A DNA stretch of 64,000 nucleotides from an uncultured virus (IMG/VR IMGVR_UViG_3300043473_000258) (taxonomy: Duplodnaviria; Heunggongvirae; Uroviricota; Caudoviricetes), in the IMG/VR virus record IMGVR_UViG_3300043473_000258, one strand, 5' to 3'. A model generated the notes under the pieces. The model ran no database searches, had not been told where the DNA came from, and was given only the letters and a program-made list of their open reading frames with translations. Numbering within the stretch: the first letter of the stretch is position 1; the number at the start of each line of letters is the position of its first letter. The position numbers were made by a program, and so were the translations under genes. Below, piece by piece: positions 1 through 52,510 of this stretch.

Positions 1-17
1 GGAGCCAAGGCCCCCAA

Positions 18-161
18 GTGAAACGCTTCCTGCCCCTCATCGTTGTCCTCCTCTGGAGCCTCGGCTGGTTTTTCATCGGCCGGGCCTCGGCCCTTTTCCA
101 GCGGCATTGCCCGCTGTGCGAGGCGCTCGAGCGGGAGAGCAAATGGGAGACGCCCAAGTGA
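18..161 (+). CDS. Small hypothetical membrane protein (47 aa, MKRFLPLIVVLLWSLGWFF...CPLC)
   Basis: Read manually. GTG start in a GTGA junction, hydrophobic N-terminus. Confidence 0.45.
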   Translation: MKRFLPLIVVLLWSLGWFFIGRASALFQRHCPLCEALERESKWETPK

Positions 162-40329: not shown

Positions 40330-43300
40330 ATGGACGAGACCCAGCTCACGCCGGAGCAACTCGAGTATGCGGCGGACATTCCGCTTCCCGAGACGCAGGT
40401 CGGTCGTGCCGCGAACATCCTTGGCACCGCCCAGCGCAGTCTGACGAGCAGTATCGTGAGCCCATTGGCGGGCATCGCCCGGTTCACCGGGATGAAGACG
40501 TCCCCGAAGCTGACTGAGATTTTGCGTGACCAGCAGCAGCCGGGTGGGCGAATGCCAATCAACCCGGAGATGGCCCAGGATTTCTCGACGGGTCTGGCGC
40601 GAGCGGCTGGTGCGGCCCCGGCTTCGATTGCGCTGGCGACCGGTGGCTTGGTCCCACTTATTGGCGCGGGTGCGCTCGGTGGCTACGAGACCCACGGCCA
40701 GCAGATTGAAGACTACGAGCGGCGTCGGCAGGCGGGCGAGCTGGAGCCTGGCGAAGAGCCACCCTCCGGCTGGGCTGAAGTGGCCAAGGGCGCAGCCAGC
40801 AACGCAGCTTTCCTTGCCGGTGGCATGGGCGCGGGCAGGCTCGCAGCCCCCATTCTTTCCCGGCTTTCGGGCACCCCGGCGAGGGTGCTGGCTGGCTATG
40901 GTGCCACCGTGGGCGGCAATCTGGCGGGCGCGGCGGCGGCCCGGAAAATCGAGACCGGCAAATTCGGCTACGAAAACCCGGCCGCGGCAGCCGAGGACCT
41001 CTTCACGGCGGGCGTCACCTTCGGGCCCATCCCGACCAAGCACCTGCTCGAGGCTCCGGCGTCAAAGTACAAGAGCCCGGAGGCGCGGGCGCTGGAAAGG
41101 CAGGCACGCGAGGCGGAGCGGGCGGCGGCCCAGGAGGAAGCGGACAGGGCAGCTCGGGCGGCGGAGGCGCGGGACCGTGCGGCGTCGACTAGTGTGACCA
41201 GCCAAAACCCGAACCTGACGCTCTCGACGATGGCGCAGAACACCTCGCAGGTGGAGCAGATGGTCTCGCACATCATCCCTGGCACGCTGGAGGGAACGAC
41301 CGTGCCGCAGGAATGGCCATACGTGGGCACCTCCACGCCGGGCGAGCGGCACATCGTCAACCTGGCCGGTCAGAACATCGCCAGCATGATGCTCGCCGAG
41401 GGCGACATCGCTTCCTTCTCCATGCCAACGGAGCTGGGCACGAGCAAAATGGATCAGCAGGCGGCCGCCCGGCAGCACGCGCTTTACCGGATCCGTCAGA
41501 CCCTCGACACCCTGCGCAACGGGGGCGACGAGGGCAACCAGATCGCGGAACAGGCGGGGCTCTCGCGCACGCACGCCATCGCGGCTTTCGCCGAGGCCGA
41601 GCGCATCTTCAACGCGAACGAGCCGGTCAATCCCAACATGACGGTCGAGCAGCAGATTGCCACCCGGAAGGGGGCGAGCGTGCTCGGCAACCTCAACACG
41701 CTGCGCAAGCAGGAGCCCACTCCCATCGTTGAGGCCGAGATTCGCGCCGAGCTCAACAAGCCGGAAGTGCAGGCCGAGCTGGCGAAGAGCGGAGCGCCCG
41801 TGCCGCCCACCGACTTCGAGCGGCTGCAGCCCAAGTACGCGCAGGAGTGGAAGGCCCTGCTCGAAGCGCGGGACAAGGAGATTGAGGACGCCCACTGGGA
41901 TGCGCAGTCGGCGCTGGCCGCACGCTTCATGGCGGAGAAGATGGCCGGACCTGGGCCCACCCCGGAACAGCAGCAGCAAATTTGGGCAGCCCGGCAGGAG
42001 GCTCTCCGCGCTGACGCGGCCGAGAAGCTCAAGGCCAAGCTCGCGCAGGAGGAAATCGACGCCAAGGCCGCCGCCGACAAGGAGGCAGCCGACCTCGCCG
42101 CCGCCCACGAGGAGGCCGTTCCGGCTCCCGCCGCGCCCGCCCTTGTGGACAAACTCACGGGAAAGCCCGTTGCCAGAATGTCCAGACTCACGCAGGCTAC
42201 AGAACCACCACCAACTACTCCTACCAATGAAACCGGGCAGAACATCCAACAAATCCCCAATCCCCAAGGGCAGCCACCCATCGGCAATGCAGACAACGCC
42301 CCAACCGGGGTTCGGGGGGTCAGTCTCCTCGGGACCGGGGCCGAAGAAAAGCCTCTACAGCAGCCGGGGGGCAACGCCCCAGTCGGTGAAGCAGACAACG
42401 CCGGAGCCGGGGTTCGGGGGCAAGGCCAGCTCGGGCAAGGCACCGCGCAACGGCCTGTACTAACCGCCGAGGAGCAGGGCTGGGTCAAGAATCTGCAGGA
42501 GCTGATTGACCGGCTGGGCCGCAAGCCCAAGGCCAAGCAGACCAAGAAGGACAAGGCGGACATCCGCAATGCGTTTGACCGGCTGAAGCAAATCGACGAG
42601 GAGGCTGCCGCCCGTCAGGGTGGTGGCGAGCCGCCTCCCACGCCGGAGTCCGATGCGACCCTGCGTGAGCAGCAGAAGCAACTGGTCGACGGCACCCGCG
42701 ACGTGATGCTCTTCACGCCGGGGGAAACGGAGCTGCCGGTGCCGCCCGGCAAGACGCGCGTGCCGGTGACTGGCGTCGGGGTCTTCCACTACGACATGGG
42801 GAAGGTCAGCCAGGGTCAGATTTTCGAGGCTGTGATGAGCGGCAAGGTGGGCGAGCTGCTCAACCTCGGCAAGGAGACCAAGGCCGAGGCCGTGGCCGCG
42901 CCGGGGAAGTCCGTGGTGCTCACCGAGCACACGCCCGAAGGGGTGGAGGTGCGGGCGAGTGTCACCAGCGAGGGCGAGCTGGAGGCCAAGCGGGCGGAGT
43001 TCGAGAAGACCAAAACGCCCGGCAACATCATCGGCACGCGCACCGCGGACGAGGTGATTGCCGCCCGCAAGGGTGCGACCGAGCTGGACACCACCTCACC
43101 GGTCACCGGAGAAGAGTACATCGGTGGCCTTGCCCGGCCGGGGCAGAGGGGCGTGGCCCTTGGCGCCGTGGGCAACAGGGTCCGAATCAAATGGGAGGAC
43201 GGCAAGGTCACTGACGAGGAATACTATAAGGTTATGGCCAAGAAACGGCCCGAGTCTGCGCACGACTTGATGGATAAAATCGTGAGGCCCGCGCTTAAAA

Positions 43301-46300
43301 AGGGGAAGCCCATCCTCTCCTCAGTGGTCGATGCGATCCAGCCGCGCCGGGTCAAAGGCGTGGTGGAAAACGTGCCTGCTGCGTGGGTGCGCCGACTCCT
43401 TGAGATTGAGGGCTACCGTGAGCAGGGCGGCCAGTGGGTGAAGGTGGGCGAGCGCGAGGGGCCGCCAGAAAAAGGCCCGAAGGTGAGCGAGAGGCAGGCC
43501 GTCGACTATCACAACCGCACCAATAAGATGAGTGCGGAGGAGCTCGAGAAGGAGCTGGCCAATCCGCCGACCGATCGCCAGCGGTGGATGACCCTGCAGA
43601 TCGCGAAACTCTACAGCGACCTTCGCGCCCATCACCGGGAGGTGCTGGAAATGGAAAAGTCGGTCGACTACCCCGCGAAGCTGGCCAAGATGACCGACGC
43701 GGAGCTTAAAACCGAGCAGAACCGGATGGACCGCACGGGGGAGCAACGGGCTCTCATTGCGCGTGAGAGCATGGGGCGCAGCCAGGCGAGGGCGCAACCC
43801 AAGCCTGCCGCTGCGGCCGCAGTTCCGACTGCCGAGGGGGCCCGCATCGTGAAGATGCCTGACGGCCGCGAGCTGGAGGTGAAGGGCAGCGGTCACACGC
43901 TGACGTGGCGGGACCCGAGCTTCACGACCGGCCCCTATGGCGACCGTTTCGTTCTCGCCTCGCCCGGTTACCGCGAACAGATTCTGGCGGCAGAAGGCAA
44001 GCCGACCGGGCCCGCCAAGGCCATGCCTGAGAGGATGAAGGCGAGCCACGCGCCTCCGCCCGAGCCGGGCGAGCCGGACGTGGTCATCATCGGCTGCGGG
44101 AAGACCAAGTGTACCTTGGCCAGGGGCGAGGCGACCGAGGCGGGCAACCTCTACACGGGCCCCCTCTTCACCGATCGCCGCGACTTCGCGCAGGCTGGCA
44201 AGCGGCCCTGGGCCATCCTCTCCGCCTTGCATGGGCTGCTGGCGCCGGGCAAGAAGATTGAAACCTACGACAAGACCATTGATTCCCTCACGCCGGGAGA
44301 GCGCAGGGAGTGGCACGAGCAGGTGCGCAGGTGGGTGGGCGACTATTTCAACGACAACACCCAGGGCAAGACGATGGAGGTGCACGCGGGGGCCGAATAC
44401 ATCAAGGAGATGAACAAGGCGCTCGAGGGAATGGGCGTCACGATCACCACCCCGATGAAGGGCAAGGGCCTTGGCGACCAAAGGGCATACTATAAGGCTC
44501 AAGCGCAGGCTGCGGAGGCCAAGCCCGCTGCCGGGGCTCCGGCCGCAACCGGGGATGTTAAGCAGCAGGTGCGGGCCGAGATGGAAACGGCACTGGGGCA
44601 CATCGAGAAGGGCGACCTGGAGGCAGCCAAGGAGTCCATCGATCGGCTGGAGGAAATGCGCGGTGCCATCGAGAAGGCCAAGATCAACCGGAAGGTTCTG
44701 GACGACGCCATCGACAAGGTCAACAAGGCGTACAACGAGGCAGCCATTCCGACTGAAGGAGTGGTCGGGCCGCAGGGGCTCAACAGCGTGGGCCTGCCGC
44801 CCATCGAGATGATTGGCCGCAACCTGCGCAAGCGGTACGACGCCGACGTCGCGAAGGGCAGCAAGCTCGCGTTCGATGAGTGGCTCAGTGACCGGCTCGA
44901 GGGCAACGACAAGATCCTCGACACGATGGATCCCCAGTCGCCGCTCTACAAGGCGATGGAGGCGGAGAATGACGCCATCGTCAACGAAATCAACAAGCCG
45001 CACAACAAGAGCGGAAAACTCGGATTCCCGCCGACCCCGGCCACCAGGCCCGCAGAGCGGGAGGAGCAACGCGCCCGCTCGGAACCACCCGAGGCGCCCG
45101 AAAAGATCGTCGATGCGAAGCTGCAGAAGGGCAACGTGACGCCGCTCATCGAGGTGCAGGTAGGAGAGATGCCGGATGGCGAATGGAAGAGCACCTTCCA
45201 GCTCAACACTCATGAGAGCGGCTACGGCGTCCCCTGGTCCGAGGGATTCGGCAGCCGCGAGGATGCGGTGCAGCACGCAGCCAGCGAAATGCTGGACTGG
45301 GTCAAGCACATGGAGGGCCGCAAGGACCTCACCAAGGCGGGGAAAAAGCAGCTCGCCGACATGCGTGCGCAGGTGGAGCGGATGCTGAAAAAGGAAGGCG
45401 TCGAGATGGCCGAGGTCGAGGAGGCTCCAGCCGCCAAGCCCGCCGCGGTCGCCGCGGCCAGCGTGCCGGTGGAAGATCGGATGACCCAAATTCAAATCAA
45501 CCGTCTTCAGGAGACTCTGGACACCGGCAAGCGGGCCAATGGGAAGAAGATCGATGCCAGGGATCGGGCGGACATTCAAAAGGAAATCGACGGGCTCAAG
45601 ACCCGGCTCGAAGAGAAGCGGGCGGAGCGCGAGCGCAACCCGGACACGCCGGTTGAGGCCATCGGGGAGATTAAGGAGGGAGTCGCGGACAAGCCCAAGG
45701 CGTTCACCGCCGAGGTGAAGAAAATCCTCACGGCCACGCTCGAGGAGGAGCTCAAGACCGCCCCGGAAAAAGAGCGGCCCCCTTCCCGCGCATCCTACCA
45801 GCCCGGATTCAAGCCGCCCGCAGAGCCGGTGACGCCCGCAGCCAAGCCGGAGGTGATTTCGATCCACATTCCCGGCGATGGCGAATTCCGCATCACCAAG
45901 ACGAAAGAGGCAATCGAGCAGGTGCTCAAGGGCATCCGTTCGATGCCCGGCGCAGAGAGCACGGCGCCGACCGGCCCGCGCCCCGTGCCCAAGGTGGAGC
46001 TAACCGGCGAGGAGAAGCCGCGCCTCATGACGGCCGAGGAGCTGGCCGCCGAGAAGGCTGCGCCACCCGCCGCGGCAGAGAAGCCAGCGGCTCCGACTGA
46101 AGGTGGTAATAAGTTTTATGAAACCGAGCGGGCTGCTGACATCGCGGAGCTGAACAAGATCAACGCCGAGCTGGAAGGGCATTTCGCCAAGCCGCCCGGA
46201 AGCCCGCCCGGCCCTCGGGAGGAGTGGGACCATGTTCAGGCGTTGCTGCGGCGGAAGCGGGACCTCGAACACAAGCACCAGTTGGGAGACGGATACGATC

Positions 46301-49300
46301 TCATCGACAACCTGTTCTCGAAGGCTCAACAGGACCTCGGCTTGCCGCCGCGTGCTCGTATGTCGCAGGTGAGCAAGGCGAATCAGGCCAAGATTACAGC
46401 CAAGGCGAGAGAGGCGGTGGCGGCTGACCCCCGACTGGCGCGTAGATTTGCCGAGGTCGACGGAGTGCTCTTCGACAAGGTGACCGGCCAGCCCCTGCTG
46501 GACCCTGCCGCCCGCAGGAAAATCGAGGATGCCACCGGAGAGGAATTGATTCTTCCCAACGCCCGGAAGAGGGCCGACGCCACAAACCCCAGGCAGGAGC
46601 CCACCCCGGAGGTGCATGAAGCGAAAGCCGAGGACCTCGAGACCCAAATCGGCCAGCTCGACCAGCAGATCAACGCCGACCAGCAGAAGGTGACGAGCCC
46701 CCGATTCAGCGCGGAGAAGCTCGCTGCGCAGGACCGGCTCATGAAAAACCGCGCCCTGCGCGAGGAGCTTTCCGACCAGCGGCTGAACATGAAGCCCGAG
46801 CCTCCGCCCAGCGAGCCGCTGACCCAGGCCGAGCAGCGTGCGGCCGGGGAGAAGGTGAGCAACGAGCAGAAGCTGGCCGAGGTGGTGACCGACCGCAAGG
46901 CGGCGGAGGCGGAGGTCGCAGGCTACGGCGACCCGAGCAAACTCAAGGGTCTGCAGAAGCAGCTCTACGACGATGCGAAGGACGACCTCAATAAGCTCAA
47001 GAGTCAGGAGGCTTGGCTGCGCAAGAGGGTTGAGGGCGGCCCGGAGGTGACGACCGAGGCCAGTGCGCCGGGAGGCAACGGGGTCGCCCGCTTCGCCCGG
47101 CTCTTCGGGGTCGATGAGGCCACCCTCCAGAAGGCGCATGACTTCGTGCACAACGAGCTGGTCAAGCCGTTGCAGGATGCGGCGACTCGGGTCTTTGGTT
47201 CCGAGGTCAAGGTCGAGGTGCGTGACACCAAGACCGGGGTGCCTTCGGTCGTCATCTTCGACGACAACACGATCGGTATTTTCGTGCCCCCGCAGTGGGC
47301 GGCCGAGCAGCGGGCAATGCTTGGCAGCGAAGCCAAGTTCCGGGCCTACGCGAAGAAGGCTTTCGGCGAGGAGCTGCAGCACGTTGCCACCCTCAAGGTG
47401 CTTCGTGACATGTGGAACAAGCTGCCCGAGGCGGGCAAGACAAACTTCGACGAGTTTGCTCACAGCAGGTTTCAGGACATGGCCTTCGAGATTCAGAACC
47501 ATGTCAACGAGCTGCGCACCAATGGCCGTCACGCCGAGGCCGAGGCCATTGAGAACGCCATCCGGGCGAGCCGCGAAGCCTACGACGCGCAGCAGGGCTC
47601 GATGTCTGGCGGCCAGCTCCTCGACGAAATGGTCAACGACCCGAGGAGCGCCTTCAAGTATGGCATCGAGCTCGCACGCCAGCTCAATCAGTTGCACAAC
47701 AAGAAGCAGATTTCCGAGAGCTTCTTCGAGCGGGTGGTGCAGCCGCTGAATGACTTTTACAAGCAGGTCGTGGCCCACCTCAAGGGACTCCTCGGCAAGG
47801 CCCAGAGCGGCGAGATTAGTCAGACTCTCAAGGAGCTTCTCGACGGGATGCAGTCAGCCCTGGAGGGCAAGTCCGCGGAGGCGCAGGTCGAGCGCGGTCC
47901 AGCGGTTCAAACGCAGCCCCACATCAATCGCCTTGAAGAGACTGCGATTCCTTGGCATGGTAATGATCGTGAAGATATTGACGCCCGCACAGCTCTCCGC
48001 TCGGCTTCGCCAGACGCGCCTCGCTCCGCAGCGGAAAATGTCCTCGCAGGAAAAGCTGCAGCAAACGCAAAACTCCCTCTCGGCAGTGAGGCCCGTAACA
48101 TCGCCGAGCTTCAGCAACTCGCAGGAGCCCAGCCCGAGCGTCTCATCGATCGAGACAAGCTCGTAGGCGACGGCGGATTCTCAGTCACGCAGGGCGAGCA
48201 CACCAGCGTCTTCGACCTCGACCCTGACCGGGTGGTCAAGCTGGTGAACGAGGGCAACTCGGGTGGCACACCCAGGATCCTCGAAGGTTTCCCGACGCCC
48301 ATCGTGGGTACAACGATCGCCTCGCACGCGGCGAGCCCGAGCGAGTACCTCGGGGAACGGATGCGGCTGAACAACGAGGCATTCGGCGACGACCAGCGGT
48401 ATCACGGCGTCTGGCTCAAGCCCAACGGCGAGGTCGGCGGGCTGGTTATCTCCCAGCCATTCATCGAGGGCAAGCCGCCCACCGCGGAGCAGGTCTCCGA
48501 CTTCATGCGGGCCAACCAGTTTGTGCAGGTGGACCTCGACATGTGGTTCCGGCCGACTGACAACCTGCTCGTCAGCGACACGCACACCGGCAACTTCCTC
48601 GAGAAGGATGGCAAGGTTGTGCCCGTCGACCTGCAGGTTAAGCGGGCCAACGCGGAAGAGCGGGCCGAGGCCATGCGTGCGCTGGGCACCATGCCGGGCC
48701 CGCAGGTGACGACCGAAGCCTCGGCGCCGAGCCTCCGGGGCGTGGTCGACGTGGCCAAGAAGTACGTGAAGGAAAGCAAGGCGCGGGAGTACGGCTACGG
48801 GCTGAGTAAAAGCTACAGCGAGTTCAGGGATCGGATGTCGACCGCGCTCAACGCCATCGAGAGCATCTCGAACAACAACGGCACCCGGCTGGCCAACTCG
48901 ATGTACGACTACTATTCCGACCTCACGGGGAAGGGTCGCGAGAAGACGCGGCTGGAGTGGAAAGACCTTCTGACTCGCGAGGGATGGAAGCACGCTCACC
49001 GCCTTGGCCTGGGCCTGCCCTCCAAGGAGCTCGTCGAGGCGAGCGAGCGGGCCTTCCCGTGGCGCGAGGCTGGCTTCGGCACGGTGACCGACGTCAACAG
49101 CCCGGCTGAGTACCAGGCCAAGGTGGCTGCAGCGCGGGCCGAGCTCGACGACTGGGTCCGGCGCATCGACTTGGGGCTCAAGAGCAGCAACCCCGACGTG
49201 GTCGATGCGGCCAAGGCGCTCGAGCCAACCTATAAGGCTGCCCAGGCTCTCATCCAGACCGATGCGGGACTCAAGCAGGCCATTGCGCAGACGGCCCGCA

Positions 49301-51516
49301 TCCAGCAGGAGACCGGCCGCCAGATTCAGATGGCCAAGCAGCGCGACATCGACCTCAACGAGGTGGAGAATTACATCCGCCGCCTCTACGAGGATCCCGC
49401 GGGCGAGAAGGCCCAGCGTTACGTGCCCAGCTCCAGCAGCCGCGGCGGGGCGGTCGTCAACGACAAGGGCTTCGCCAAGTCCCGAGCCTTCAAGAGTGCG
49501 GTCGAGGCCATGGAGCACGGGCTGAAGATTGCCTCGATGGACACGGCGAAGCTCGTCGGCCACGGCGAGGCCAGTCTCCAGAAAATGATCGGCTCGAAGA
49601 TGATGGAGCGCCAGCTCCACGCCGAGCCCGCTCCATTCACCGGCCGACCTGTCATGACCGAGAAGCCCGAATACTATAAGGCTGCCACCGGCAAGATGGA
49701 GAAGCGGGCCCCGGCCGGGTATGAGGTGGTCGACATGGGCGGCAAGCCTGTCTACGTCGAGGAGAACGTGGCCGGGCTCTTCCGCATGTTCAATGAGCCT
49801 AGCGACGTGCGCCGTGGGCTGACGGGTCGCACGCTGCTCTCCGCGGCCAACAACTTCAAAGCCTTCACGCTCATCATCGACACCTATCACTCGATGCGTC
49901 TGGCGGCCACGCTCGGCGGCGTGCTCCTGCAGGGCAAGGGCATCCACAAGATCCCCATCGGCGGCCAGCTCAACCGGATGAAGCGTTTCATTGCGCGTGG
50001 GCAGGCCGCCCTCGACTACGAGCCGGGCGAGCTGCTCGACATGGTCAAGCGCGGGCAGATCACCGCGGACGACGCGCAGTGGGCGAAGGAAGCGCAGAAG
50101 TATTACGAGATCGGCAGCAAGGCCGGGGTGGCCTGGGGGCGGCAGATCGATAATCTCTACGAGCAGATCGGGCGGCCGTTCCTGGTGAAGATTCTCGGCA
50201 AGAAGGTCGGGCACGGGCTGGAGACCTTCAACGAGTTTGTCTTCAAGAAGCAGACGCGGGCCGCGATGATGGTGGGCTTCCGCACGATTCTGGACCGCAA
50301 CATCGAGCGGCTGCAGGGCAGCAAGATGAGCATGTCCGACATCGAGCGCCTCAGTGCCAAGGAGACCAACGAAATCTTCGGCAACCTCGCGCACCAGAGC
50401 TGGATCAAGGGCAAGACCGGGCAGGACATCGCCCGTCTCTTCATGCTGGCCCCCAACTGGAACGAGGGACGCGCCCGCTTTCAGGGCCGGGGCCTCATTC
50501 AGGCTGGCAAATTCCTGGCCAAGCCCTTCCGGCGCGTGAGCTACGTGGACGAGAACGGCAACGTCACCAGCAAGCTCAAGTTTCAGCAGCCGGGCAATGC
50601 GGCGGGCACCATGCTGGCGCTGGCGGCGGGCATGTTCGCAGGCAACCAGGTCATCAACGGCCTCACCCGTGGCAAGCCGACGTGGGAGAACGAGGACGGC
50701 CACAAGATGGACGCATTCATTCCCAATCTGCCGGGGATTGGTGGAGGAGGGACGAACGGCTTCTTCTTCAGCCCGTTCAACCTGGGCAGTGAGGACCTGC
50801 ACACGATGCAGAAGTACGGCTCGCGCTCCTCGATACTGGAGACCGGCTCGCGCATTGCGATGAACAAGGCGAGCGGGCTGGTGCGCGGCACGGCCGCCCT
50901 CGCTGGCATCGACCCGATGGGCCGCCCGCTTTCCGGCGACACGAACCGGCTTGCACAGGCCGTTCGCGGCTACGCCCCCGTCCCCATTCCCGCTGGGATT
51001 ATCCCTGGTGCTCCTTGGGCGCTGGAAAAAATCGGGCTGCTCAATCCCGAGTTCCGGGGCAAGGGCGACGTGCAGCGCCAGCTCTTCGGAATGTTGGGCG
51101 TCAAGCTGGACAAGGCGGAGACTCCCGAGCAGCGCATCCGGGCGGTCGCAGCCAAGACTTTCCCGCAGCAGTTCCCCAAGTCCACCAGCCCCGGTGACTT
51201 CGCCCGGTTGCGCAATTTTGTGAGCAACGAGAGACTTGATAAAGCCGCCGATGAAATCATCCGCCTCATCTCCCAAGGGAAAACCGAACAAGACGTCCTA
51301 CGTTCCTTCTCTCCGACGCGCATCATCGGTCAGAGCCGGGCACAAGAGCAACTGCTCATGCAGACCCCAGCCGCCCGTATCCTCCGGCCGGAAGTGAACG
51401 CCGTTCGCACCACCGATTACAACAACCTGCAGCGGGCTATCGAGACCGCCCGGCGCAGCCCCAAATACCGTGAGGCCCTGGCCTCCGGCCAAGCCGCGCG
51501 TCTACCCGTCCAATGA
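40330..51516 (+). CDS. Giant (3728 aa) polyvalent internal virion protein
   Basis: Continuous ORF with a DUF6884-like domain (~44080-44495), degenerate zincin motif EELQH (47368-47382) and kinase-like domain (~48190-48640). Confidence 0.85.
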   Translation: MDETQLTPEQLEYAADIPLPETQVGRAANILGTAQRSLTSSIVSPLAGIARFTGMKTSPKLTEILRDQQQPGGRMPINPEMAQDFSTGLARAAGAAPASIALATGGLVPLIGAGALGGYETHGQQIEDYERRRQAGELEPGEEPPSGWAEVAKGAASNAAFLAGGMGAGRLAAPILSRLSGTPARVLAGYGATVGGNLAGAAAARKIETGKFGYENPAAAAEDLFTAGVTFGPIPTKHLLEAPASKYKSPEARALERQAREAERAAAQEEADRAARAAEARDRAASTSVTSQNPNLTLSTMAQNTSQVEQMVSHIIPGTLEGTTVPQEWPYVGTSTPGERHIVNLAGQNIASMMLAEGDIASFSMPTELGTSKMDQQAAARQHALYRIRQTLDTLRNGGDEGNQIAEQAGLSRTHAIAAFAEAERIFNANEPVNPNMTVEQQIATRKGASVLGNLNTLRKQEPTPIVEAEIRAELNKPEVQAELAKSGAPVPPTDFERLQPKYAQEWKALLEARDKEIEDAHWDAQSALAARFMAEKMAGPGPTPEQQQQIWAARQEALRADAAEKLKAKLAQEEIDAKAAADKEAADLAAAHEEAVPAPAAPALVDKLTGKPVARMSRLTQATEPPPTTPTNETGQNIQQIPNPQGQPPIGNADNAPTGVRGVSLLGTGAEEKPLQQPGGNAPVGEADNAGAGVRGQGQLGQGTAQRPVLTAEEQGWVKNLQELIDRLGRKPKAKQTKKDKADIRNAFDRLKQIDEEAAARQGGGEPPPTPESDATLREQQKQLVDGTRDVMLFTPGETELPVPPGKTRVPVTGVGVFHYDMGKVSQGQIFEAVMSGKVGELLNLGKETKAEAVAAPGKSVVLTEHTPEGVEVRASVTSEGELEAKRAEFEKTKTPGNIIGTRTADEVIAARKGATELDTTSPVTGEEYIGGLARPGQRGVALGAVGNRVRIKWEDGKVTDEEYYKVMAKKRPESAHDLMDKIVRPALKKGKPILSSVVDAIQPRRVKGVVENVPAAWVRRLLEIEGYREQGGQWVKVGEREGPPEKGPKVSERQAVDYHNRTNKMSAEELEKELANPPTDRQRWMTLQIAKLYSDLRAHHREVLEMEKSVDYPAKLAKMTDAELKTEQNRMDRTGEQRALIARESMGRSQARAQPKPAAAAAVPTAEGARIVKMPDGRELEVKGSGHTLTWRDPSFTTGPYGDRFVLASPGYREQILAAEGKPTGPAKAMPERMKASHAPPPEPGEPDVVIIGCGKTKCTLARGEATEAGNLYTGPLFTDRRDFAQAGKRPWAILSALHGLLAPGKKIETYDKTIDSLTPGERREWHEQVRRWVGDYFNDNTQGKTMEVHAGAEYIKEMNKALEGMGVTITTPMKGKGLGDQRAYYKAQAQAAEAKPAAGAPAATGDVKQQVRAEMETALGHIEKGDLEAAKESIDRLEEMRGAIEKAKINRKVLDDAIDKVNKAYNEAAIPTEGVVGPQGLNSVGLPPIEMIGRNLRKRYDADVAKGSKLAFDEWLSDRLEGNDKILDTMDPQSPLYKAMEAENDAIVNEINKPHNKSGKLGFPPTPATRPAEREEQRARSEPPEAPEKIVDAKLQKGNVTPLIEVQVGEMPDGEWKSTFQLNTHESGYGVPWSEGFGSREDAVQHAASEMLDWVKHMEGRKDLTKAGKKQLADMRAQVERMLKKEGVEMAEVEEAPAAKPAAVAAASVPVEDRMTQIQINRLQETLDTGKRANGKKIDARDRADIQKEIDGLKTRLEEKRAERERNPDTPVEAIGEIKEGVADKPKAFTAEVKKILTATLEEELKTAPEKERPPSRASYQPGFKPPAEPVTPAAKPEVISIHIPGDGEFRITKTKEAIEQVLKGIRSMPGAESTAPTGPRPVPKVELTGEEKPRLMTAEELAAEKAAPPAAAEKPAAPTEGGNKFYETERAADIAELNKINAELEGHFAKPPGSPPGPREEWDHVQALLRRKRDLEHKHQLGDGYDLIDNLFSKAQQDLGLPPRARMSQVSKANQAKITAKAREAVAADPRLARRFAEVDGVLFDKVTGQPLLDPAARRKIEDATGEELILPNARKRADATNPRQEPTPEVHEAKAEDLETQIGQLDQQINADQQKVTSPRFSAEKLAAQDRLMKNRALREELSDQRLNMKPEPPPSEPLTQAEQRAAGEKVSNEQKLAEVVTDRKAAEAEVAGYGDPSKLKGLQKQLYDDAKDDLNKLKSQEAWLRKRVEGGPEVTTEASAPGGNGVARFARLFGVDEATLQKAHDFVHNELVKPLQDAATRVFGSEVKVEVRDTKTGVPSVVIFDDNTIGIFVPPQWAAEQRAMLGSEAKFRAYAKKAFGEELQHVATLKVLRDMWNKLPEAGKTNFDEFAHSRFQDMAFEIQNHVNELRTNGRHAEAEAIENAIRASREAYDAQQGSMSGGQLLDEMVNDPRSAFKYGIELARQLNQLHNKKQISESFFERVVQPLNDFYKQVVAHLKGLLGKAQSGEISQTLKELLDGMQSALEGKSAEAQVERGPAVQTQPHINRLEETAIPWHGNDREDIDARTALRSASPDAPRSAAENVLAGKAAANAKLPLGSEARNIAELQQLAGAQPERLIDRDKLVGDGGFSVTQGEHTSVFDLDPDRVVKLVNEGNSGGTPRILEGFPTPIVGTTIASHAASPSEYLGERMRLNNEAFGDDQRYHGVWLKPNGEVGGLVISQPFIEGKPPTAEQVSDFMRANQFVQVDLDMWFRPTDNLLVSDTHTGNFLEKDGKVVPVDLQVKRANAEERAEAMRALGTMPGPQVTTEASAPSLRGVVDVAKKYVKESKAREYGYGLSKSYSEFRDRMSTALNAIESISNNNGTRLANSMYDYYSDLTGKGREKTRLEWKDLLTREGWKHAHRLGLGLPSKELVEASERAFPWREAGFGTVTDVNSPAEYQAKVAAARAELDDWVRRIDLGLKSSNPDVVDAAKALEPTYKAAQALIQTDAGLKQAIAQTARIQQETGRQIQMAKQRDIDLNEVENYIRRLYEDPAGEKAQRYVPSSSSRGGAVVNDKGFAKSRAFKSAVEAMEHGLKIASMDTAKLVGHGEASLQKMIGSKMMERQLHAEPAPFTGRPVMTEKPEYYKAATGKMEKRAPAGYEVVDMGGKPVYVEENVAGLFRMFNEPSDVRRGLTGRTLLSAANNFKAFTLIIDTYHSMRLAATLGGVLLQGKGIHKIPIGGQLNRMKRFIARGQAALDYEPGELLDMVKRGQITADDAQWAKEAQKYYEIGSKAGVAWGRQIDNLYEQIGRPFLVKILGKKVGHGLETFNEFVFKKQTRAAMMVGFRTILDRNIERLQGSKMSMSDIERLSAKETNEIFGNLAHQSWIKGKTGQDIARLFMLAPNWNEGRARFQGRGLIQAGKFLAKPFRRVSYVDENGNVTSKLKFQQPGNAAGTMLALAAGMFAGNQVINGLTRGKPTWENEDGHKMDAFIPNLPGIGGGGTNGFFFSPFNLGSEDLHTMQKYGSRSSILETGSRIAMNKASGLVRGTAALAGIDPMGRPLSGDTNRLAQAVRGYAPVPIPAGIIPGAPWALEKIGLLNPEFRGKGDVQRQLFGMLGVKLDKAETPEQRIRAVAAKTFPQQFPKSTSPGDFARLRNFVSNERLDKAADEIIRLISQGKTEQDVLRSFSPTRIIGQSRAQEQLLMQTPAARILRPEVNAVRTTDYNNLQRAIETARRSPKYREALASGQAARLPVQ
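42227..42463 (+). CDS. Nested out-of-frame gene (78 aa, basic, QTTPxPGFGG twice)
   Basis: TTGCCA-17-CAGGCT promoter, CA-rich leader, GC3-rich codons in this frame. Confidence 0.55.
   Translation: MKPGRTSNKSPIPKGSHPSAMQTTPQPGFGGSVSSGPGPKKSLYSSRGATPQSVKQTTPEPGFGGKASSGKAPRNGLY
47969..48166 (+). CDS. Nested out-of-frame gene (65 aa) just before the kinase domain
   Basis: TTGAAG-17-CATGGT-7-GTG; main-frame codon usage degrades across this interval. Confidence 0.45.
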   Translation: MKILTPAQLSARLRQTRLAPQRKMSSQEKLQQTQNSLSAVRPVTSPSFSNSQEPSPSVSSIETSS

Positions 51517-52109
51517 GTGACATCCCTCCCGTGGTAAAAGACAAGACAGCCCTGCCCTTCATCTACGGCTGGCCCGCGTACATCGAGGAGACCGGCGTGG
51601 AGATTCGCGGCCACAACTGGGGCACGCTCAAGCAGCTCGTGGGAAAATATCTCGATGCCAACAAGCTCGACGTCGGCGACCGGGAGCTCTACCTGAACAA
51701 GGCGGTGTGCATCGCGCTGACCCGCGCTGGCAAGGGGGCCATGTGCATCCGGCCCTACAAGCTGAGTGCCGCGGCGAGTAAGACCCACGCCTACGAGATG
51801 GACCCGCGGATGCCCAAGAACCTGCGGCGTGGACCCGGTGGCTACGACGCCCGCGCCTGGGGCGTGTGGCACATGGCTGCCTGGGACGGCAAGCTCAACG
51901 GCAATTACGCGAGGGAGCTGGTCGCCCGCATCGGTTGCGGGAGCTGCCGCAGCCACGTCGTCCGGGTGATGATGAAGACGCCCATCCCCAACGATCACTT
52001 CGACGCCTTCCGCTGGACTGTTGATTTCCACAACGAGGTCAACAAGCGGCTGCGAAAGAAGACGGTCACCTACGACGAGGCGAAAGCCTTCTGGCACCTT
52101 GAACCATGA
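51513..52109 (+). CDS. Erv1/Alr-family sulfhydryl oxidase with N-terminal extension
   Basis: WGVWHMAA, CGSCRSH, WTVDFHNEVNKRLRK, YDEAKAFW. Confidence 0.85.
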   Translation: MSDIPPVVKDKTALPFIYGWPAYIEETGVEIRGHNWGTLKQLVGKYLDANKLDVGDRELYLNKAVCIALTRAGKGAMCIRPYKLSAAASKTHAYEMDPRMPKNLRRGPGGYDARAWGVWHMAAWDGKLNGNYARELVARIGCGSCRSHVVRVMMKTPIPNDHFDAFRWTVDFHNEVNKRLRKKTVTYDEAKAFWHLEP

Positions 52110-52510
52110 GCGCGTGCGCCTGGACAACGGAGTACGACCGCGACCCACGGGGGCCGCGCATCAAGCGCACTGGCCCGAACAACGCGGACGCCAGCGGCTG
52201 GCGCTTCCTTCACCTCGCGGCACTCGACGGAAAGCTCTCGCAGGGTACGGCCCTGCAGTTTGCTTCCTGCATTGGGTGCCCGGACTGCAAACGGCACTTC
52301 CTTCAGCTCATCCGAACGCATCCTATAAGGTCGAGCGATCGTGAAGACGCTTTCGCGGCGACGGTGCGCTGGCACAACGCGGTGAACCGGCGCCTGAACG
52401 TGGCGGAGGTGGGGGTCGAGCAGGCCCGCAAGATGTGGGACAACCGCAAGCCCGCGGCGGCCGCGGCGGAGCCGGGCGTGCCCCAGTTCAGCAAGGTCGT
52501 CACCGGTTAG
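52106..52510 (+). CDS. Second Erv1/Alr-family sulfhydryl oxidase
   Basis: WRFLHLAA, CPDCKRHF, WHNAVNRRL, EQARKMW. Confidence 0.88.
   Translation: MSACAWTTEYDRDPRGPRIKRTGPNNADASGWRFLHLAALDGKLSQGTALQFASCIGCPDCKRHFLQLIRTHPIRSSDREDAFAATVRWHNAVNRRLNVAEVGVEQARKMWDNRKPAAAAAEPGVPQFSKVVTG

Follow-up and report, generated by a model that had tools for sequence, protein, structure and literature searches.

The window analysed here is the whole stretch of DNA, 64,000 nucleotides long, and corresponds to bases 1–64,000 of a 77,615-base virus record. It carries a gene for a polyvalent-type protein (hereafter the polyprotein), with a kinase domain inside it and a short open reading frame (ORF) nested in the +1 frame. 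The features considered below are the following.

40330..51516, plus strand: polyvalent-type host gene, 3,728 aa, with DUF6884 at aa 1251–1389 and Kinase-PolyVal at about aa 2565–2770 (Pfam)
47038..47070, plus strand: 33-nt direct repeat (family D19), copy 1, in the main frame, about 860 nt 5' of the nested promoter
47933..47938, plus strand: –35-like hexamer TTGAAG, read as L-E in the polyprotein frame
47956..47961, plus strand: weak –10-like hexamer CATGGT, 17 nt past the –35 hexamer and 7 nt before the nested GTG
47969..48166, plus strand: nested +1-frame ORF, candidate antitoxin, 65 codons from GTG 47969 to the TAG at 48164–48166
48022..48129, plus strand: N-terminal helices of the kinase in the main frame, predicted by the model, dual-coding with the nested ORF
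48196..48640, plus strand: Kinase-PolyVal core, motifs intact
48697..48729, plus strand: 33-nt direct repeat (family D19), copy 2, 85% identical, right after the kinase

The kinase domain inside the polyprotein

The original prediction recognized a kinase-like domain, and this was borne out: the motifs are present, and the domain passes the Pfam cut-off for PF18762 (27 bits) with 34.9 bits when scored alone and 28.8 bits in the full protein. The window domain is a member of Kinase-PolyVal. Its motif sites are the E-H at 48196, K at 48238, Q at 48454, D-T-H-T-G-N at 48577–48594 and D at 48628. The structural model shows a kinase fold (pLDDT 86) and ends after the strands carrying the catalytic D-x-H-x-x-N and D. 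The best matches of the model are the minimal kinases NleH1, YihE and OspG, with middling Z scores of 6.8–7.1 and an rmsd of about 3.9 over 124–133 residues. The window kinase has no C-terminal subdomain, while the active-site E, K, D and N are conserved; across 105 kinase sequences the glutamate E69, ahead of strand 2, is invariant, and the glutamine Q155, in the final strand of the N-lobe, is present in at least 90%. The part of Iyer et al. 2017 (PMC5512222) on this family likewise describes these kinases as truncated, lacking the C-terminal subdomain. PADLOC matched none of its families among the 105 kinases, and NCBIfam gave no match among 8 proteins. When the window kinase was queried alone, no homologue of near length was found, and none in phage or plasmid records or viral contigs; the search recovered one longer protein.

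About 960 aa of the 3,728-aa protein lie C-terminal to the kinase, which is therefore internal. Among 18 proteins, PHROGs named a helicase, a family of unknown function and a weak exonuclease match only, and no structural gene. From the kind of protein it is, we infer that the polyprotein is carried in the virion; the argument has to be made from protein kind because PHROGs named nothing beyond these three. The taxa of the nearest kinase clusters, together with the Verrucomicrobial occurrences described by Iyer et al. 2017 (PMC5512222), point to a Verrucomicrobial host.

Several other features of the window were recorded. The two 33-nt repeats flank an unnamed segment of about 290 aa plus the kinase, and possibly mark a cassette boundary or a recombination cassette. 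An Erv1/Alr-family gene (51513–52510, Pfam) lies directly 3' of the polyprotein gene. The motif CCTAGAC is found about 35 nt 5' of the starts at 1640, 18755, 28408 and 37344 and looks like a second –35-like motif of the phage. By eye, Shine-Dalgarno sequences seem rare in the window.

A nested ORF behind a promoter-like sequence

The motif and ORF coordinates of the original prediction were exact: TTGAAG at 47933, a spacer of 17 nt, CATGGT, 7 nt, GTG at 47969 and a stop ending at 48166. It had further claimed that this arrangement matches a leaderless geometry used elsewhere in the phage, and this was confirmed. The geometry TTG-16..18-xAxxxT-4..9-start precedes the first start in 8 of the 73 genes judged real, as against about 1% of all ATG and GTG codons (P 1.5e-6). 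The spacing suggests a leaderless transcription start at the nested GTG. Only 3 of 6 positions of the –10 hexamer match the consensus, which makes it weak, and a consensus scanner omitted the TTGAAG/CATGGT site, giving instead the overlapping TTGGCA-16-GATATT at 47952–47979. The in-frame ATG codons at 47957 and 47963 are alternative starts of the ORF. One claim did not hold: the ORF was said to end before the kinase domain, whereas it runs over the kinase's predicted N-terminal helices, at about 48022–48054 and 48088–48129 (H11–21 and H33–46 of the model, which starts at 47992).

The length of the nested ORF is not informative, as 19 of the 74 stop-free +1 stretches in the gene reach at least 65 codons. 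Codon usage is more telling. Positions 47950–48069 form the most anomalous 40-codon stretch of the polyvalent gene (z –6.3), and the limits of the anomaly coincide with the promoter and the +1 stop. Main-frame GC3, from a level of 0.83, drops at the promoter (4/14) and at the nested ORF (35/66); it is normal in the stretch directly upstream (47/59) and in the kinase core (139/158).

Elsewhere in the polyprotein there is a second nested +1 ORF, which begins with ATG (42227–42463, plus strand), encodes 78 aa and contains the tandem motif QTTP.PGFGG. It lies behind TTGCCA-17-CAGGCT and an A/C-rich leader, with codon anomaly z of –6.0 and –5.0 over 42170–42463. The main-frame stretch at 42227–42463 is similar in P0004 and P0007; no PHROG match came up, nor any partner domain. 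Further codon-anomalous windows are 51232–51351, 44479–44598, 46063–46182 and 43180–43299 (z –4.5 to –3.2); none of these four contains a convincing nested ORF by eye. The stretch 51232–51351 may hold a promoter for the downstream genes.

Conservation of the +1 frame at kinase loci

Viral, genome and metagenome collections scanned by pattern yielded 251 loci; including the window, 92 of 252 hold the kinase. The 59 loci tested had the anchor and at least 400 nt upstream, and the other 33 of the 92 were left out (28 with short flanks, 5 without the anchor). Under the null, the main-frame amino acids were kept fixed and codons were resampled, and the tested span was codons –70..–31 before the conserved E-H. 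Over this span 56 of 58 kinase loci have an open +1 frame, against 31.7 expected; with loci clustered at 60% identity, the count is 18 of 20 clusters against 10.1 expected (P 4e-5). One of the two misses (L182) is a broken gene, and the other (L003) has a 60-aa ORF that stops on the last codon of the span. Three windows in the kinase core gave no comparable +1 excess, the largest being 23 against 17.0 expected (P 0.04). The null under-predicts open frames in places: in the +2 frame of core codons 0–39, 32 were observed against 13.9 expected (7 against 2.8 by clusters).

We also drew Bacteroidota and Verrucomicrobiota samples by Pfam family, independently of the pattern scan. The kinase was present in 13 of 301 Bacteroidota genomes, at 15 distinct loci. 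The +1 frame is open in 15 of 15 of these loci (4.3 expected) and 5 of 5 clusters, a count obtained after the tested span had been shortened by one codon once the data were seen, the longer span taking in the stop codon of one locus (L263). In Verrucomicrobiota (10 of 301 genomes with the kinase), the frame is open in 9 of 10 tested loci (4.4 expected), and two further loci have the ORF by eye. Given the main-frame amino acids, the excess of open frames is strongest in AT-rich genomes.

The kinase with its nested ORF is found as stand-alone genes at scattered chromosomal places, as LigA-type inserts and in polyproteins. The overlapping small ORF that the original prediction proposed looking for at stand-alone Kinase-PolyVal loci is thus conserved there, and also in the LigA-type inserts and polyproteins. 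Nearly half of the tested loci (29 of 59) belong to one LigA-type cluster in which the kinase lies in frame within a ligase, which we call LigA because of P0003's Pfam domains and the flanking sequence that the loci share. In L018, L020, L024 and 26 related loci, as in P0003, the kinase, the nested ORF and the promoter lie inside an NAD-dependent DNA ligase of Akkermansiaceae-like bacteria; the insert in P0003 is bordered by the duplicated peptide KEGL.PAAQQ. At another locus (L277) the partner seems to be fused to the preceding gene: the +1 frame there, about 230 nt ahead of the kinase E-H, forms the C-terminus of a long upstream ORF, open for about 250 codons. Taken together, the comparison of loci indicates with high confidence that the hidden +1 gene is real and family-wide.

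Start sites and promoter geometry at homologous loci

In 29 of 59 loci and 7 of 21 clusters the promoter geometry is directed at the nested ORF's start, several starts having been tried per locus; in one stand-alone family it does so in 19 of 29 loci. In the fusions the promoter is encoded within the fusion protein, as I-D-x-E-x-I-L-P-Y in the ligase and L-E-E-x-x-I-P-W in the window. Six relatives of the window available as protein only also have L/I-E...IPW, and five of the six would allow a start 7 nt past the –10 hexamer (background 0.12).

Of the stand-alone loci, 18 of 21 have a main-frame start close to the nested one, at a distance of –8..+2 codons; among fusions the figure is 1 of 33. 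In LigA-type and polyprotein fusions the main start is about 280 or more codons upstream of the nested ORF. In all stand-alone clusters (13 of 13; 3.2 expected, P 3e-10) the main frame runs through the overlap without a stop. No conserved slippery heptamer was found at the stand-alone loci, and the window has none. Because both frames have separate, adjacent starts at stand-alone loci and a conserved slippery site is lacking, the two products appear to be independently started proteins and not the result of frameshifting.

In the family L281–L310, the –10 hexamer of the peptide promoter (TAATGT) contains the kinase ATG. The kinase would therefore need a weaker upstream transcript. Five loci (L209, L283, L300, L304 and L305) adjoin genes that by eye resemble restriction-modification or DNA-modification genes. 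Five Bacteroidota loci (L253, L256, L257, L262 and L264) have TAnnTTTG shortly 5' of both starts, which may be the –7 promoter box of this phylum.

Selection on the nested peptide and its predicted properties

We compared changes by codon position in 15 disjoint pairs of loci. In the first 18 codons of the overlap, the frequency of changes is 0.32 at main-frame position 1, the wobble position of the +1 frame, and 0.12 at position 3, while in the kinase core of the same pairs it is 0.15 at position 1 and 0.45 at position 3. Codons –60..–31 are strongly conserved in both frames. Amino-acid conservation in the 15-pair analysis is 0.76 in the +1 frame versus 0.61 in the main frame. The reversal was repeated in 4 Bacteroidota pairs (0.41 and 0.19 in the overlap against 0.28 and 0.54), and in all 4 the +1 frame has the higher amino-acid identity of the two. 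In 6 stand-alone pairs the reversal is weaker and is seen in the first 15 codons only (0.31 vs 0.20). These patterns show protein-level selection on the nested ORF across the kinase family.

The peptides are small and basic, with a median net charge of +5 over the first 45 aa, and share two short helices joined by a linker; one arginine and one proline are conserved in at least 90% of 54 peptides. The model of the window peptide (pTM 0.35) has two predicted helices, at residues 6–18 and 26–38, and a low-confidence tail. No Pfam family was above cut-off in the 54 peptides; as to a DNA-binding, autorepressing domain of the antitoxin kind, the prediction gave two basic helices only. ESM Atlas gave no usable match for the nested peptide. 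Independently called proteins of 51–83 aa, 46 in number, match the peptide profile, and all 19 that were inspected are of one stand-alone type. The window peptide scores 6.6 bits against the profile of 33 others, a value that is reached by 34 of 2,000 shuffles. A match to this profile near position 1,700 on the minus strand scores above the window peptide; it is a partial, antisense stretch of 31 aa and was dismissed as chance. The Bacteroidota and Verrucomicrobial profiles align poorly (hhalign probability 7.5%). Since the window peptide is a weak match and the profiles of the two phyla align poorly, homology of the peptides between groups rests mainly on their position.

Loss of the kinase and of its partner

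For the loss count with the kinase as query, 84 distinct loci were scored by hand. The nested ORF is damaged beside none of 75 intact kinases and beside 3 of 9 broken ones (Fisher P 9e-4; 7e-3 with clusters collapsed). This asymmetry is modest, because the ORF has a quarter of the length of the kinase, so that even a dispensable ORF would be expected to show only about 2 losses. With the peptide as query, 29 of 251 genomes gave 30 loci, and 29 remained after one false match (L309) was left out; L267, L278, L008 and L197 are duplicate loci. All 14 intact kinases of this set have the nested ORF. The other 15 of the 29 kinases are broken or cut short, and 13 of these 15 retain the peptide. Broken kinases are frequent in the Pfam-drawn samples as well (5 of 15). 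In all, the kinase is broken and the peptide ORF intact in at least 19 loci, 6 of them from the Pfam-drawn samples and 13 from the peptide query; a peptide query favours intact peptides, and errors of metagenome assembly may inflate the number of kinase breaks.

Since none of the 75 intact kinases lacks the ORF and many dead kinases keep it, the peptide does not appear to be the toxin. Read in this way, the loss pattern rules out that the peptide is a toxin left unguarded and agrees with a kinase that is costly to keep, while falling short of proof that the peptide is essential.

Discussion

We consider it probable that the nested ORF encodes an antitoxin of two helices, which is probably expressed from an internal promoter of its own and would restrain a kinase that is itself probably toxic. 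The phage kinase would be made solely within the late polyprotein and probably carried in the virion. In the cell that produces the phage or carries its genome, the leaderless nested transcript would supply the antidote, and the peptide would bind and inhibit the kinase. In a newly infected cell there would be no antidote, and the kinase would strike. The original prediction went further than the ORF itself, supposing that the kinase and its partner were captured whole into the polyprotein with the partner still expressed separately. By comparison between loci this is well supported, because the ORF is conserved and under selection, the promoter geometry is kept inside the fusions, and the ORF is never missing beside an intact kinase.

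Conservation and selection would be the same for any obligatory partner, and the kinase lacks its C-terminal subdomain both in our model and in the family description of PMC5512222. The peptide might thus be a real partner of another kind, namely an activator, a substrate adaptor or a folding subunit that replaces part of the missing C-lobe. We find this unlikely. The promoter is aimed at the peptide and not at the kinase, whose ATG in one family lies inside the –10 box, so the peptide would be made without dependence on the kinase and in excess of it, as an antidote should be. It also outlasts the kinase in 13 of the 15 loci with kinase loss, and a virion kinase would be injected without its activator. 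Small basic peptides beside a plausible modifying enzyme would also agree with reversed roles, the peptide being the toxin and the kinase its enzymatic antitoxin, as in the TakA/TglT type VII pair. This arrangement is very improbable here, as the loci with an intact peptide beside a broken kinase number at least 19 and the converse was never seen.

The +1 ORF could also act through translation or its promoter only, start competition or promoter occlusion damping kinase synthesis while the peptide is inert. The two starts lying a few codons apart at 18 of 21 stand-alone loci and the kinase ATG within the –10 box agree with this, but the +1 amino acids are the better conserved ones (both in the 15 pairs and in all 4 Bacteroidota pairs), and the ORF is retained in fusions whose main start is some 280 codons away or more, so that we regard it as improbable. 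Programmed –1 frameshifting from the internal promoter would make the +1 ORF the N-terminus of the kinase, and three stand-alone loci (L035, L038 and L080) do lack a main-frame start near the nested start. It is highly improbable in view of the main frame that stays open in every stand-alone cluster, the separate starts in most of these loci and the lack of a conserved slippery heptamer, in the window as elsewhere. It is hardly credible that the ORF merely shadows the main-frame protein and has no function. The gene is GC-rich and has many long +1 frames, and the match of the window peptide to the family profile is weak, but open frames exceed the expectation given the main-frame amino acids, most strongly in AT-rich genomes, the codon-position pattern is reversed, and the spacing between promoter and start is conserved.

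The antitoxin reading can be compared with known systems. In its part on Kinase-PolyVal (PF18762), Iyer et al. 2017 (PMC5512222) describes the same truncated kinase fold in phage polyvalent proteins and a Verrucomicrobial clade, with stand-alone versions in Bacteroidetes, and proposes host modification like that of the T7 kinase. The part of PMC5512222 on the family describes no partner of the kinase; the main text does not use the word 'overlap' and uses 'nested' of a hairpin. In a search of the openly accessible literature we found no nested out-of-frame partner described for Kinase-PolyVal; 'Kinase-PolyVal' was found in a family list only, and 'PF18762' was not found. Nor did a search of open papers on nested, overlapping or out-of-frame antitoxins turn up this arrangement.

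Closest in layout are RpnL and RpnS, in which, according to a commentary (PMC10400984), the antitoxin is encoded inside the toxin gene and translated separately, as we propose for the candidate here. RpnS, however, is in frame, being the toxin's own C-terminal part made from an internal translation start (PMC10400984). The ORF of the window is instead in the +1 frame, unrelated in sequence to the toxin, placed over the 5' end of the domain and equipped with its own promoter geometry, and we did not class the pair as an Rpn-type system. If the antitoxin reading holds, the pair shares with HipBA and HipBST, as presented in the part of PMC9758233 concerned with their organization, the combination of a protein kinase and a small protein. 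It differs from them in kinase family, and the Hip antitoxins, with a DNA-binding HipB, are encoded by neighbouring genes; Pfam, NCBIfam and PADLOC scans gave no HipA or HipB match. A phage effector domain with a small putative immunity ORF is also found in the MuF polymorphic toxins of temperate phages, whose immunity ORFs lie downstream of a C-terminal toxin in the account given by Jamet et al. 2017 (PMC5576092, relevant part). We did not assign the pair to these, as the kinase is internal, the small ORF is nested, and Pfam gave no MuF match. With the effector internal to a 3,728-aa protein, a downstream partner gene is impossible, and the partner is nested, unlike in MuF. As in type II toxin-antitoxin systems, there are two linked protein genes, and the small one is kept with every intact large one (no damage in 75, and 14 of 14). 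In this respect the kinase–peptide pair looks like a putative type II toxin-antitoxin system, whose defining features would be toxicity of the kinase and its neutralisation by the peptide.

Because the antidote and its promoter lie inside the toxin's own coding sequence, such a module could be inserted in frame without loss of the antidote. The toxin domain, with the out-of-frame antitoxin and promoter inside it, may thus form a self-immunising toxin-antitoxin cassette at the level of a domain, insertable into polyvalent proteins and the Verrucomicrobial NAD-dependent DNA ligase; on this proposal our belief and our doubt are evenly balanced. Other internal domains of polyvalent proteins may have the same nested-antidote arrangement, the ORF at 42227–42463 being a second nested one in this polyprotein.

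With these results, a Pfam kinase family that was uncharacterised becomes a two-gene system open to testing, and the odd, low-complexity N-termini of its kinases are explained as the shadow of a second protein. They suggest a way in which a toxic domain could be lodged within a giant phage protein, or within a housekeeping enzyme, and yet carry its antidote. An out-of-frame, promoter-bearing antitoxin conserved over two phyla would differ from the in-frame Rpn antitoxins and would be largely invisible to annotation. The codon-level signature described here offers a way of finding hidden partners of other effector domains.
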